In this document: positions 43,871 to 60,844 of the stretch, one piece after another | How positions within the stretch are numbered: the first letter of the stretch is position 1 | Layout: the number at the start of each line of letters is the position of its first letter | Position numbers and translations under genes: made by a program | Notes under the pieces: model-generated | What the model saw: the letters and a program-made list of their open reading frames with translations, nothing else | The model's database searches: none | What the model was told of the DNA's origin: nothing | From: a virus | Strand: one strand, 5' to 3' | Virus record (IMG/VR): IMGVR_UViG_3300047548_000777 | Location: 13,592 to 77,591 of that record | Length of the DNA stretch: 64,000 nt

Positions 43871-43882
43871 TTGTTTGATTCC

Positions 43883-43968
43883 TTATAAATAGTATTATGG
43901 ATGTGGGTTCTATCCACTACGGTGTGGGGCACCGTAAGCTATTATCTGTTAAATAGCATCCATTACTA
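43883..43968 (-). ncRNA. Structured 5' leader RNA (four-way junction), copy A
   Basis: P1 AUAGUA-AUGGAU/AUCCAU-A-AUACUAU encloses P2 GCUAUU/AAUAGC, P3 UACGGUG/CACCGUA and P4 GUGG/CCAC. It lies between a late promoter (43969-75) and the SD. Confidence 0.7.
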
Positions 43969-43974
43969 TTATTT

Positions 43975-44649
43975 ATGTATATTAAGATGAATACTCCTTA
44001 CACTTACCTAATCGGATGGTCAGATTTAAATCGTTGGTATTACGGCGTTCGATATTCTAAGAATTGCCATCCAACTGACTTGTGGAATCCGTATAAGACA
44101 TCAAGTAAGATAGTATTAAAATTTATTAAAGATCACGGAGAGCCCGATATTCGAATTGTTCGTCGTACATTTAACAGCGTTAACGAAGCAAGAGTATGGG
44201 AGCATAGAGTTCTATTAAAATTAAACGTCATTAATAAAGAGAAATGGTTGAACGGACATAATACTATTGCGTTTGATATTACATTAGTTCCAAAAGGAGA
44301 TCAACACTGGACTAGAAAGAATCCCGAAAAGTGGGCTAAAATTCAAAAATTTAGAAAATACCAAAAAGGGGAAATGCATTGGACTAATCAAAAAACTGCA
44401 TCGGCGCAACAGCATCGAACGCGAATGAATAGCGAAATGAATCCTAATAATTTTTTACACAACAAGATTTTAAGAAGTGAAAAGTTAAAAATCGATAATC
44501 CTGTTAATTTACCAGGAGTTAAAAATAAAATTAAAGAAACATTAACAGGATATAAGCATCCTCGTAAAATATGCGAGCACTGCGGTAAAGATGTAGCTGA
44601 TTCGATTTATACAAGATGGCACGGAACTAAATGTAAAAATTTAGGTTGA
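43975..44649 (+). CDS. Free-standing homing endonuclease, GIY-YIG-like (Seg-type)
   Basis: YTYLIGW....WYYGVR, Y.TSS, EA..WE..VL and WLN motifs, NP-type DNA-binding repeats, and C-terminal CEHCGK...RWH..KC. Antisense to the operon. Confidence 0.8.
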   Translation: MYIKMNTPYTYLIGWSDLNRWYYGVRYSKNCHPTDLWNPYKTSSKIVLKFIKDHGEPDIRIVRRTFNSVNEARVWEHRVLLKLNVINKEKWLNGHNTIAFDITLVPKGDQHWTRKNPEKWAKIQKFRKYQKGEMHWTNQKTASAQQHRTRMNSEMNPNNFLHNKILRSEKLKIDNPVNLPGVKNKIKETLTGYKHPRKICEHCGKDVADSIYTRWHGTKCKNLG

Positions 44650-44703
44650 CGTTTTAGGTCTACGCTGCGGGGTTACAGCATAAGTCTCGTGTTAAACGAG
44701 CAC
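44648..44703 (-). ncRNA. Structured leader RNA, copy B (orphaned, 3' arm of P1 missing)
   Basis: P2 CUCG/CGAG, P3 UAUGCUG/CAGCGUA and P4 GAC/GUC, with loops matching copy A. Late promoter ATAAATA at 44721-27. Confidence 0.65.
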
Positions 44704-44736
44704 TCAGTTATAGACATATGTATTTATCATATAAAG

Positions 44737-44762
44737 AAAAAGGCTTCCGAAGAAGCCTTTTA
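44737..44762 (-). terminator. Intrinsic terminator (UUCG loop) after the orphan capsid-end copy
   Basis: AAAAAGGCTTC-TTCG-GAAGCCTTTTT on the minus strand. Confidence 0.85.
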
Positions 44763-44783
44763 TTGGGGGTGTTACTCAGTTAA

Positions 44784-44846
44784 TTAACTAAACTTGACTG
44801 CGCCAGAAGCGATAGCAACCTTACCTAAGTAATCTGCGGCATTTCC
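44784..44846 (-). pseudogene. Orphan duplicate of the last 20 codons plus stop of the major capsid gene
   Basis: Encodes GNAADYLGKVAIASGAVKFS*, identical in protein to 46166-46228. 53/63 nt identical and every difference is synonymous. Confidence 0.9.
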
Positions 44847-58595: not shown

Positions 58596-58625
58596 ATAAA
58601 TCCTAAGCTTTAATCTATTTATTAA

Positions 58626-59227
58626 AGAAGAACTTACGTTCTTCTGCTGTTCACTAGCGTTCACAGCTATTTTTCTTTTCTTTAATATTATTTACAGCAG
58701 CAAGCAGAGCATTTAATAATATACTCATCTAGATTAATCAGCCACACTTAGCCCTGGCGGGCTAAGAAATGTTTGGGGTTCTCATCTGAGTCGCACAACC
58801 ACACAGCGTTAGGACTATAATTGACTATAATTGCATATAATCTATTGCGCAGGCGGTTGACCGGTACCTGCTCATCCTGTCTTGTTTCAACGGCACGCTA
58901 TATAATAAACACTGTCTTATTGTATAACGCTGTAGGAGCGTGTTAAGCCCTACATCCTTTAGCCTTGGGAGTAAAAAAGTTCTTCAAATAGCGAAATTGG
59001 TTGTATGGGAAGGCATGTCCAATCATCGTCCTGTTAAGGATAGTCGCTAAGTACCTCATGCAGCTAGAGGATTTCCGGTCCAGGTATATTCTTACCCTTT
59101 GCTTATTGTTCGTACACCCGAAATTAGCCGGTGCTAGCTATTACTGCTGTTTGCCTATACTACGCTTTTCCTCTTGCGTAGTTATGATGCCTAATTTTTG
59201 CCTTTTATTCAACTGTAATGCCTGAGT
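58626..59227 (-). ncRNA. Candidate large structured non-coding RNA (or origin-like element)
   Basis: About 600 nt with no credible ORF, around ten stem-loops, a three-way junction and long-range complementary segments. Strand inferred from the upstream promoters. Confidence 0.55.
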
Positions 59228-59404
59228 TTAAATTTTGATATTTCTTCGAGTTAGTTCTATTCTAAACATTGTTGCAGTTGCCTGATCTCTCCAATTGACT
59301 GCTGCCCACTTCAAATAATCATCTGGAATGTCCTTTAGATACACCCCTTTAAACTTTCCCCAGGGCATTCTAGTATAGGCGTATTCTTTGTAATACTGTC
59401 TCAT
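59228..59404 (-). CDS. Small DUF3820-like (MPxGKxKG) protein
   Basis: Not in the ORF track. 58 aa: MRQYYKEYAYTRMPWGKFKGVYLKDIPDDYLKWAAVNWRDQATATMFRIELTRRNIKI. AGGA SD and TAAATA upstream. Confidence 0.8.
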   Translation of the reverse strand: MRQYYKEYAYTRMPWGKFKGVYLKDIPDDYLKWAAVNWRDQATATMFRIELTRRNIKI

Positions 59405-59500
59405 ACTGAAATCCTAATGTGTAGTATTTAACTACGCATATAATCAAGGGCTGCAGAAGTGAATCTAAAATAAAATGCAGATCTTGGTTAAGATATTGCT

Positions 59501-59530
59501 ATTATACTAACTTAGAAGAGTGTTTGTCAA
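59501..59530 (-). promoter_or_regulatory. Sigma70-type promoter with consensus hexamers
   Basis: TTGACA (59525-30)-18 nt-TATAAT (59501-06), pointing at the DUF3820-like gene and the structured region. Confidence 0.7.
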
Positions 59531-59962
59531 GTTGGAAATTTTGCCAAAAACGTGATTTTTATGAACTCTCACCTGAACATGTCCGTTATAGTATTCGTCA
59601 GACTCGAGCACGCGTCGGTCAAACTGCTCTCGAGCTTCGAGATAGCTGCATTCTGATTTTGAACTGCAGTAGTAGAGAATTTCGCGTTTAAAATTCTCTG
59701 CGCCCTGTTCTTGGACGTCTTTAGATAACGCTTCGCTTGAACCATAGTATTCCTGCCAGTCGGAATCTATTTTGCTACGGATTTTCTTTTTCTTTTTGGT
59801 ACCATTTTTAAGTTTTACAACTTTATAGGTAGTTTTGGAAAACAAAAATAATTTTTTTCCGATATACTTCTTATTATTTGTTAAATTTGTTATGATATAA
59901 ACAAACCCGATGGAGCCAGGTGGTATATGCTCGACAATGTTATTATTATACATCCATGTCAT
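59507..59962 (-). CDS. GIY-YIG family nuclease (short, Lys-rich loop)
   Basis: GFVYIITN..N.KKYIGKK, DW..YYGSS, F.REIL, Y.EA..Q and YYNG. Confidence 0.85.
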   Translation of the reverse strand: MTWMYNNNIVEHIPPGSIGFVYIITNLTNNKKYIGKKLFLFSKTTYKVVKLKNGTKKKKKIRSKIDSDWQEYYGSSEALSKDVQEQGAENFKREILYYCSSKSECSYLEAREQFDRRVLESDEYYNGHVQVRVHKNHVFGKISNLTNTLLS

Positions 59963-60813
59963 AAATTTGATAGATAGTTTTGGACATCCTCTAGAGAAAA
60001 TATTGAAATATTACCGTTATCGTACAAATACACTTTAGGTATATACCCCGCCTCTGCACATGCTTTCATTTTAGGTATTAATGTCTCGGATTTTATGGTA
60101 TAGGTAGATTTAATCTCACATATTATATTTTCGGATAATATACTGCAATCTGGATAATATTTTCTAATTTTTCCCTGATAAATGTAATCAATTTTTGGAA
60201 GATTTTTCTTCTGAATAATTAAATCATCTTCTTGATATTCTCTCCAAAGCATCGGTATAACGAATCTTTCGTATCCTTGTACTTTAAATTCTTTACCCGA
60301 TGGGGAAAATATTGAATATGTTTTATATCTGTTATTTTGTTGCTTCTCAAAAACTTCCGGTATGTGGAGTTGATGTTCTACTCCGTAGCGGTTGCGAAAT
60401 GTCTCTTGCCGAACAAGCCTTCCTGCGGAAGTAGCCCATCCTTTGATAGTTTCTTTATCTCGATTTTTTGATCTACAAGTTCCTGAGCAGTACTGACGAA
60501 ATCCCTTGTATAAACTTACAAATTTTACAGGCTTTTTACAGTTTAAACATGTTTTTTTAGAAAAATCTAAATTAAGAATTCGCCATTTTGTTTCCGTTAG
60601 TGAATTGTCATTAAATGGTATGTTTGTAGATTTTAATATTTCAATAAACTGCTGACAATAAGTTGTTTTATTTCCGAGTTTACTTATTAAGACTTGATTT
60701 ACGGACCTCCGATTCAAGTCTTTTAGTAAAGATTGTGCAAGATTGATATTCATATAGTCAACACAGTTTTCGGGTAATGATTCAATTAAGATGTTATTAT
60801 GATACCAGCACAT
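59959..60813 (-). CDS. Free-standing putative homing endonuclease (Zn-finger plus PD-(D/E)xK domain)
   Basis: C..C...F......YCS..C, T...RYGVEH, VQGYE and KYYPD......I.EIKS.YT. Confidence 0.75.
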   Translation of the reverse strand: MCWYHNNILIESLPENCVDYMNINLAQSLLKDLNRRSVNQVLISKLGNKTTYCQQFIEILKSTNIPFNDNSLTETKWRILNLDFSKKTCLNCKKPVKFVSLYKGFRQYCSGTCRSKNRDKETIKGWATSAGRLVRQETFRNRYGVEHQLHIPEVFEKQQNNRYKTYSIFSPSGKEFKVQGYERFVIPMLWREYQEDDLIIQKKNLPKIDYIYQGKIRKYYPDCSILSENIICEIKSTYTIKSETLIPKMKACAEAGYIPKVYLYDNGNISIFSLEDVQNYLSNL

Positions 60814-60844
60814 AAACTTAATTATGTGCTGCTATTATTTTTAC

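Follow-up and report, generated by a model that had tools for sequence, protein, structure and literature searches.

How does a phage genome come to hold three free-standing endonuclease genes, each lying between two diverged copies of the element that it interrupts? The question is raised by a 64,000-nucleotide (nt) stretch of viral DNA (the window; positions 13,592 to 77,591 of IMG/VR record IMGVR_UViG_3300047548_000777), which belongs to a 77.6-kb viral contig of freshwater metagenomic origin (completeness estimate ~21%) and derives from an uncultured freshwater T4-like phage. Along 17 kb of the window, the 3' end of the major capsid gene occurs twice, once on either side of an HNH gene; a GIY-YIG gene stands between two copies of a late promoter and structured leader RNA, and a putative PD-(D/E)xK nuclease gene between two versions of a gene's 5' end. 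The reading that we favour, and consider probable, is that nuclease-triggered entry brought in all three homing-endonuclease genes, each together with the donor's version of the element that it interrupted.

Duplicated targets at three nuclease genes

The first site is the 3' end of the transcription unit of the major capsid protein gene (T4 gp23 family; 46166..47341, minus strand; Pfam Gp23, 1.4e-99). This gene ends in GNAADYLGKVAIASGAVKFS* and is followed by a UUCG-loop terminator (terminator A, 46120..46147, minus; stem cccgc-UUCG-gcggg plus a U tract). Next come TTGACT-N17-TATTAT and TATAAATA motifs (46066-46119), upstream of the HNH/NUMOD3 gene (255 amino acids, aa; 45298..46065, minus), and two cargo open reading frames (ORFs), orf49 (45146-45295, minus) and orf101 (44857-45162, minus), neither of which has a Pfam or PHROG match. 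Directly after the orf101 stop codon the capsid 3' end begins again as tail copy B (44784..44855, minus), with weak homology extending 2-3 codons further upstream, and a second UUCG-loop terminator stands behind it (terminator B, 44734..44761, minus; stem ggcttc-UUCG-gaagcc, flanked on each side by A and U tracts). The first-pass annotation of the window, made from the sequence alone, had placed the HNH cassette between two copies of the capsid C-terminus, and repeat analysis bears this out: a direct repeat of 67 nt with 85% identity (44782-44848 and 46164-46230) encodes GNAADYLGKVAIASGAVKFS*, the last 20 capsid residues and the stop, in both copies. Tail copy A, the last 21 codons of the capsid gene (46166-46228, minus), is the translated one. 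It differs from copy B at 10 of 63 nt, all of them synonymous (0 non-synonymous) and including a TCT/AGT serine switch. Translation of copy B was ruled out by frame analysis: a start codon is lacking, and the open frame reaches just 12 codons upstream. A group I intron reading of the cassette was set aside as unlikely. Rfam matches up to E = 5 in 43500-46400 included no intron family, which does not prove that there is none, and since copy A has an in-frame stop and a strong terminator, splicing is not needed. Terminator B (44720-44761 region) lies between the HNH cassette and the GIY-YIG gene, which are convergent, and could stop transcription of both.

The second site lies ahead of the next gene, which encodes a 215-aa protein of the MGRPLNK family (43223..43870, minus), is conserved behind the capsid gene and, from its PHROG head/tail protein matches, probably specifies a head or virion protein. 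An RNA model search of the window and its relatives matched the leader of this gene to Rfam RF02980, the freshwater-2 motif, and a T4-type late promoter motif stands ahead of each of its two copies in the window. Late promoter 2 (cATAAATAa, 43969-43977), which overlaps the GIY-YIG ATG, precedes the full-length copy (43868..43977 with the promoter, minus; match at 43868-43956, 45.2 bits, model 1-84, E 1.8e-5). Late promoter B (gATAAATAc, 44720-44728) precedes a truncated copy, leader B (44645..44728 with the promoter, minus), whose match at 44632-44701 (29.2 bits, E 0.029) overstates what is truly present, namely hairpins 1-3 alone, with neither a Shine-Dalgarno sequence nor a start codon. Both copies fall under the RF02980 gathering score of 49.9 bits, and ten relatives score 53-77 bits over the whole model; by position and structure the window copies are evident freshwater-2 homologues. 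The free-standing GIY-YIG gene (224 aa; 43975..44649, plus) lies between them, as proposed at first pass, and ends in a TGA stop codon (44647-44649) that shares 2 nt with the end of hairpin 3 of leader B. Transcripts from late promoter B would run antisense through this gene toward the MGRPLNK-family gene.

The third site is the 5' end of a conserved, syntenic 151-aa gene (59507..59962, minus) with a SegE-type GIY-YIG domain (Pfam PF19835, 9.1e-33). Upstream of it is a DUF7487 gene (59959..60813, minus; Pfam DUF7487, 1.6e-29), with a predicted PD-(D/E)xK fold and a CxxC..CxxxC motif, whose stop overlaps the start of the 151-aa gene (ATGA). The DUF7487 ORF opens with an in-frame remnant of the 151-aa gene (60760..60813, minus), which corresponds to that gene's first 18 codons and retains the native upstream CATAATTA motif, so that the nuclease has 284 aa from the remnant's ATG, or 264 aa from M21 at 60753. 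The remnant starts MCWYHNNILIESLPENCV and the downstream 151-aa gene MTWMYNNNIVEHIPPGSIG. A hidden Markov model (HMM) of the first 18 residues in 57 relatives of the 151-aa gene, run against all six-frame ORFs of the window, placed the nuclease N-terminus first (23.4 bits, E 4e-6) and that of the 151-aa gene itself second (10.9 bits), in keeping with the earlier description of two versions of one N-terminus around the nuclease.

Such duplications could in principle come from a metagenome assembly that fused two strains. The window does come from a viral metagenome assembly, and plain chimeras occur among related IMG/VR contigs: two of these (L004 833-3138 and L049 1880-4164) carry two head-to-head capsid genes joined within their tail codons and are probably palindromic assembly chimeras, not biology. 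In the window, however, contigs of an independent re-assembly (Logan; two runs, probable source sample) span 42500-46769 and 59368-61281 with 0 differences, so that a chimera is not obvious. The repeats are diverged and have intact genes between them, and so are not collapsed identical repeats, and terminator repeats, the N-terminal remnant and the ATGA overlap recur in unrelated samples. We regard a fusion artefact as scarcely credible. Among the Logan contigs of the sequencing runs, no contig joint that would delete either cassette was found. Near-identical fragments of the phage also occur in two runs from a second study, where 44400-45700 and most of the third site are uncovered; none of the runs listed as holding the phage was an RNA run. 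Close to that site, summed contig depth in the source-sample runs rises over 58350-59617 to 2-5 times that of the flanks, and variant contigs are numerous there; the stretch, which overlaps ~560 nt (58665-59227) without any ORF of at least 60 aa, may be sequence common to co-occurring phages.

Relatives with and without the nucleases

The window has a T4-type head module on its minus strand (Pfam and PHROG scans), comprising portal (Portal_T4, 5.9e-113), prohead protease, scaffold-like and major capsid protein genes, and gp47-like (Metallophos) and gp46-like (AAA_23/SMC) genes lie further along. Cultured relatives are distant (jumbo phages of the Rak2, PA5oct and XbC2 type, ~71% nt identity to the capsid gene), and uncultured relatives with capsid proteins 80-92% identical number in the hundreds.

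If the nuclease genes are insertions, relatives that lack them should carry each target once, with breakpoints at the edges of the duplicates, and this was found. In 98 loci the capsid gene is followed by a gene whose product begins MGRP(L/I)(N/K), and in 33 of these the capsid gene, terminator, late promoter, leader and MGRP gene follow one another within a gap of 129-213 nt. In such single-copy loci the interval consists of the terminator, a late promoter (G/C)ATAAATAC and a three-hairpin leader running into AAGGAGAAAACAAATG. These loci show the layout that the first-pass annotation had reconstructed by removing the inserts; its label for the last gene, an immunoglobulin (Ig) domain protein, was not confirmed, as this gene has no Pfam match. 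A second capsid tail was seen in 0 of ~170 capsid loci and a second N-terminus of the 151-aa gene in 0 of 80 loci, and none of the nuclease-free loci among these held a second copy. The breakpoints in the window fall directly after the orf101 stop at the first site, in or beside the GIY-YIG stop codon at the second, and after codon 18 of the 151-aa gene at the third. Beyond the duplications, relatives show freshwater-2 as the 5' leader of the MGRP gene with a late promoter ahead of it (L008, L015, L032, L054, L056, L119, L146, L172, L179 and L181, for example), with ~90 leaders across a very large uncultured aquatic T4-like clade; an orphan motif thereby gains a genomic setting, as the late leader of the capsid gene's downstream neighbour.

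The nucleases keep to their sites. About 28 HNH homologues (36-65% identity) were found, all directly behind a capsid gene. Homologues of orf101 (32-39% identity) occur in L364-L369, always after a nuclease gene behind a capsid gene and nowhere else, which argues that HNH and orf101, recurring as a unit in these loci, form a conserved cassette. In one of them (L367 2287-3291) the orf101-like gene follows a nuclease whose resemblance to the HNH and GIY-YIG genes is confined to the C-terminal DNA-binding part, which suggests a catalytic-domain swap within the cassette. The nearest GIY-YIG homologues (P0002-P0005) range from 87% identity in P0002 to 70% in P0005, the latter on a 304-kb contig, and the closest that could be placed in context (L186-188, 53-55% identity) are likewise divergent to an MGRP gene, abutting its promoter and freshwater-2 leader; there was no second leader in L186-188. 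A DUF7487 homologue lies upstream of a 151-family gene in L346, with the same ATGA overlap and a remnant of only three codons, and another is divergent to a 151-family gene in L347. Among the closest DUF7487 homologues (P0122-P0124), P0124, with 62% identity, has a remnant at its start as well, MQWTYLGKQIDELPED. As homologous nucleases stand at the same three sites in diverged phages, all three families are, on this sequence evidence, site-faithful.

For the HNH cassette, the junctions form a series. In L119, compared with the empty loci L116 and L149, the cassette is a clean replacement from the capsid stop to the TAAATAC promoter of the next gene. In L088, L368 and L369 a terminator stands on both sides of the cassette, with the stem of the window's terminator A found in L368, where it reads cccgcUUCGgcggg, and in L369; in the window itself both tail and terminator are repeated. 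The stem of terminator B is identical to one in the relative L032. The patchy distribution and the filled and empty pair L119 and L116 are no more than consistent with endonuclease-driven mobility.

Both regions are also hot spots for other inserts. The capsid-to-MGRP interval (43871-46165 in the window; loci L004-L185) is hypervariable, at 129-3687 nt, and its inserts include HNH genes, a ~195-aa ORF family (14 loci), a glycosyltransferase, a 616-aa protein with a partial DUF7487 match and many unknown ORFs. The gap from the gp46-like to the 151-aa gene varies from 34 to 2728 nt and holds radical-SAM-like, methyltransferase-like and other genes, and in L313 (1743-2558) a further GIY-YIG-like ORF (FVYWIHL...GYIGVS). 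With so many non-nuclease inserts in both places, and with most nuclease-bearing relatives free of duplications, the pattern might reflect general mosaic recombination at two hypervariable hot spots, the duplications being left by illegitimate or short-homology exchange between related phages; the nuclease genes would then be mere cargo and their activity not involved. Against this, all three duplications in the window abut a nuclease gene, each nuclease family occupies the same target in diverged phages, and among the relatives examined no second capsid tail motif or 151 N-terminus stands beside a non-nuclease insert. The working copies beside the nucleases are, moreover, outliers at near-invariant positions. 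Recombination with the nucleases as passengers thus seems unlikely to us.

Origin of the working and displaced copies

On the favoured account, that of nuclease-triggered entry, the HNH, GIY-YIG and PD-(D/E)xK (DUF7487) genes would have come in through recombination with related phages, each keeping to a single place: the HNH gene to the 3' end of the capsid transcription unit, the GIY-YIG gene to the freshwater-2 leader of the gene that follows, and the DUF7487 gene to the 5' end of the 151-aa gene. Along with the nuclease gene, the incoming DNA would have brought the interrupted element as it stood in the donor. Homology would have resolved one side of the insertion, the other being joined without it; such one-sided homologous repair fits the right-hand junction at the first site, where the orf101 stop abuts capsid codon ~369 without homology. 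The donor version would now function, while the resident version would have been left displaced and truncated on the far side of the nuclease gene. Cuts are predicted in the consensus targets, near capsid codons ~360-376, the 3' part of the leader and the ESLPEDCVGFVY codons. We infer that the variant working copies are immune to their own nucleases, and infer the order of events as well; the target end carried in with each nuclease would then be foreign and possibly cleavage-immune. Three recognition sites and a set of natural immune variants are predicted in a concrete, testable form, and the account would explain part of the mosaicism around the capsid gene in very widespread uncultured aquatic T4-like phages.

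At the second and third sites, it is the remnant that conforms to the family consensus, and the working copy that departs from it at near-invariant positions, with pairing or peptide similarity kept, as expected if the resident target was cut and the nuclease brought an uncuttable variant. The hairpin-2 arms of leader B are the consensus TTATGC..GCGTA, as in 86 of 88 relatives; those of the working leader read TTACGG..CCGTA, with all seven pairs retained via compensatory changes. The sequence just upstream of the start codon is TTATTTATAAGGAAWCAAACAAA in four out of four GIY-adjacent leaders, and the Shine-Dalgarno-region variant AAGGAAWCAAACAAA, which may be an immunity change, is present in all four and in 0 of 91 GIY-free leaders that have the hairpin-2 motif. 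At the third site, the 151-aa gene is found in more than 570 viral contigs (60-73% identity), behind gp47/gp46-like genes, and its N-terminus is nearly invariant across the family (M(T/S)W.Y....V..LPEDCVGFVY). Codons 12-19 of the window gene are atypical, reading EHIPPGSIG against the family's ExLPEDCVG. The core LP[ED]xC[VIA] occurs in nearly all of 80 relatives and is replaced by IPPGSI in the window and by VPDDTI in the DUF7487-bearing L346, the variant N-terminus of which is EVPDDTIG. A co-transfer signal between the substitute N-termini of the window and L346 was sought and rejected, L346 ranking only 5th of 81.

The same comparisons bear on another possibility, that the target was duplicated in place at insertion and the copies then diverged where they stood, with the working one under selection, a true 'recoding'. 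The capsid tails offer it some support: the peptide of tails A and B was found in no other sampled relative, the two have an identical 26-nt core in common, and of the natural tail pairs with exactly 10 nt differences only 6% keep the same peptide. Synonymous-only divergence of the tails is, by this calibration, somewhat unusual, yet within the range of orthologues: 42 of 123 pairs of natural relatives' tails with identical peptides differ at 10 nt or more, so that two orthologous tails from related phages suffice. Deliberate recoding as the sole explanation of the synonymous-only divergence was rejected on these grounds, and the first-pass proposal of a recoded substitute is not required at the first site. 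Had copy B diverged untranslated in place, it should have gathered non-synonymous changes, and there are none among the ten, which points to two tails that both evolved as functional sequences, one of them imported. The TCT/AGT serine switch would likewise need long divergence under selection. At the third site, the two copies have only 48% DNA identity, and the remnant is nearer to other phages (~70%) than to its neighbour; at the second, the two leaders belong to different natural subtypes, each occurring in different relatives. Divergence in place is, in our judgement, distinctly improbable.

Several observations weigh against the import of donor versions, or limit how far it can be pressed. 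The closest capsid protein match is only ~90-92%, so the exact lineage has no close relative and no filled and empty pair. No relative exceeds ~80% nt identity over the last 300 capsid nt ahead of the tail, and at this distance the resident and the imported tail at the first site cannot be told apart; the codon usage of tail A is slightly nearer that of relatives than is that of tail B. No codon variant distinguishes HNH-bearing from HNH-free capsid alleles, and the GAT/GAC choice at the tail Asp, considered as an HNH immunity marker, showed no association. Most HNH-bearing and all GIY-bearing relatives have no duplication or a terminator-only repeat. Duplication as a constant part of the cassette is not upheld; it would be a by-product of individual insertions, in which the substitute is nevertheless functional, and not an obligatory part, and may be an accidental scar that does not belong to the element. 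The three relatives with GIY-adjacent leaders form one clade, so that the four-out-of-four association does not represent four independent events. The plus strand of the Shine-Dalgarno-region variant reads TATAAATA at 43884-43891, pointing to the GIY-YIG gene, and this variant may simply be the late promoter of that gene and not an immunity change; if so, the entire leader copy would lie within the nuclease transcription unit and must travel along with it. Lastly, the structural matches on which the nuclease assignments draw are middling (Z below 8).

A stronger form of the favoured account would make target-end substitution a heritable strategy of phage homing endonucleases, with the substitutes (freshwater-2 RNA and N-terminus) as selected immunity alleles and the leader co-inherited with the GIY-YIG gene. 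We hold this tentatively and lean against it. If true, it would mean that the freshwater-2 RNA was rewritten by compensatory base-pair changes and the N-terminus at its recognition codons, that the GIY-YIG nuclease and an immune leader are inherited as one unit, and that this nuclease would be the first known homing endonuclease aimed at a phage non-coding leader RNA gene.

The nucleases and comparison with known systems

The HNH gene has the motif HHILPKSLGG..N..H and matches PHROG 655, 'homing endonuclease' (8.6e-44); Pfam HNH, HNH_4 and HNH_5 scored 17-19 bits against it, all under their cut-offs, and NUMOD3 scored 35.3 bits (cut-off 20.4). The GIY-YIG gene has no Pfam match and matches PHROG 314. 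Its motifs are YTYLIGW and WYYGVRY, and Y9/Y11, Y22-G24, R26, R63, E76 and N93 are invariant in 26 homologues. The model of its protein matched the I-TevI catalytic domain best (Z 7.7, rmsd 2.9 A, 84 of 92 residues), followed by PD-T4-3, UvrC and T4 EndoII. The top 30 structural matches of the DUF7487 model are almost all of the restriction-endonuclease-like fold (TnsA, Z 7.7; Hjc, 6.6; Vsr, 5.8; I-Ssp6803I, 5.2), which lies in the C-terminal domain, and E182, P221-D222 and E233-x-K235 are invariant among homologues. With Z below 8 the fold assignment is moderate, and we take DUF7487 as likely to be a site-specific PD-(D/E)xK homing endonuclease. For both models the Foldseek E-values are not significant, and the informative part is the VIA-align ranking. 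Homologues of the GIY-YIG and DUF7487 proteins were found by alignment-based scans of viral contigs, where single-protein scans had found none. Searching PDB sequences with a profile of the GIY-YIG family, or with the 151-aa protein, returned nothing useful.

The three endonucleases had been called unrelated at first pass. Their catalytic domains do differ; the HNH and GIY-YIG genes, however, have in common a C-terminal DNA-binding or zinc-finger module (at 45313-45560, minus, and 44371-44637, plus, respectively; ending in CxxC...WHG..C, the HNH version being CPHC..WHGDNC), with 28% identity (E 9.7e-5) and visible in the DNA as a 30-nt inverted repeat with 80% complementarity. From these alignments, the two have unrelated catalytic domains and related targeting modules. 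The 151-aa gene, which itself has a GIY-YIG domain, is here the target of another nuclease family. This SegE-type gene gives the impression of a phage nuclease that has been domesticated and is no longer mobile, and the PHROG 447 label 'NAD synthetase' that it carries seems wrong.

How do these arrangements compare with systems already described? The DUF7487 gene resembles I-Ssp6803I in its predicted restriction-endonuclease-like fold (Z 5.2), in an E...PD...ExK motif and in its association with one target gene, and differs in having no detectable sequence relationship to it and in being free-standing and not intron-encoded. RF02980 is in the window no longer a motif alone and has a definite context, as a late-promoter-driven 5' leader behind the capsid gene. 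Intronless homing in T4 is known for SegB, SegE, SegF, SegG and MobE, and a review covers insertion between genes, promoters embedded in the inserts and the splitting of genes ('genes in pieces'), with no mention of flanking target duplication (PMC2988022). The window genes are like Seg and Mob in several respects: GIY-YIG and HNH genes stand alone among conserved neighbours and are patchy among relatives, their DNA-binding tails are modular (NUMOD3, zinc finger), and a neighbouring gene's promoter may lie in or overlap the nuclease gene (L119). They differ from them in the flanking target duplication, and homing is, for the window genes, a prediction from sequence. A limited literature search found no phage case of a displaced native end together with a working foreign end.

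The closest known kind is, by analogy, the mitochondrial mobile ORF (mORF) with a foreign C-terminus. In fungal mitochondria, mORFs are described from atp6 of Allomyces macrogynus and from atp6, atp9, cox2 and nad3 of Glomus; they carry in foreign C-termini and leave the native end downstream, duplicated and unused (PMC3630166 and work it cites). As there, a free-standing endonuclease ORF stands at the 3' end of an essential gene whose C-terminal segment in use is diverged and in frame, the peptide is conserved and the DNA diverged, and the interpretation is co-transfer with the endonuclease. The layout itself, a nuclease flanked by a diverged copy in use and an unused remnant, is found at all three sites of the window. 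The differences are that the setting is a phage and not an organelle, and that the nucleases are HNH, GIY-YIG and predicted PD-(D/E)xK, where mORFs are mainly LAGLIDADG. At the first site the terminator is duplicated too; at the second a non-coding leader RNA, together with its promoter, takes the place of a coding end as target; and the third is a mirror image, in which an N-terminus is affected and the remnant is fused to the nuclease. Three catalytic families in one 17-kb stretch would thus share the layout of a displaced native end and a working foreign end.

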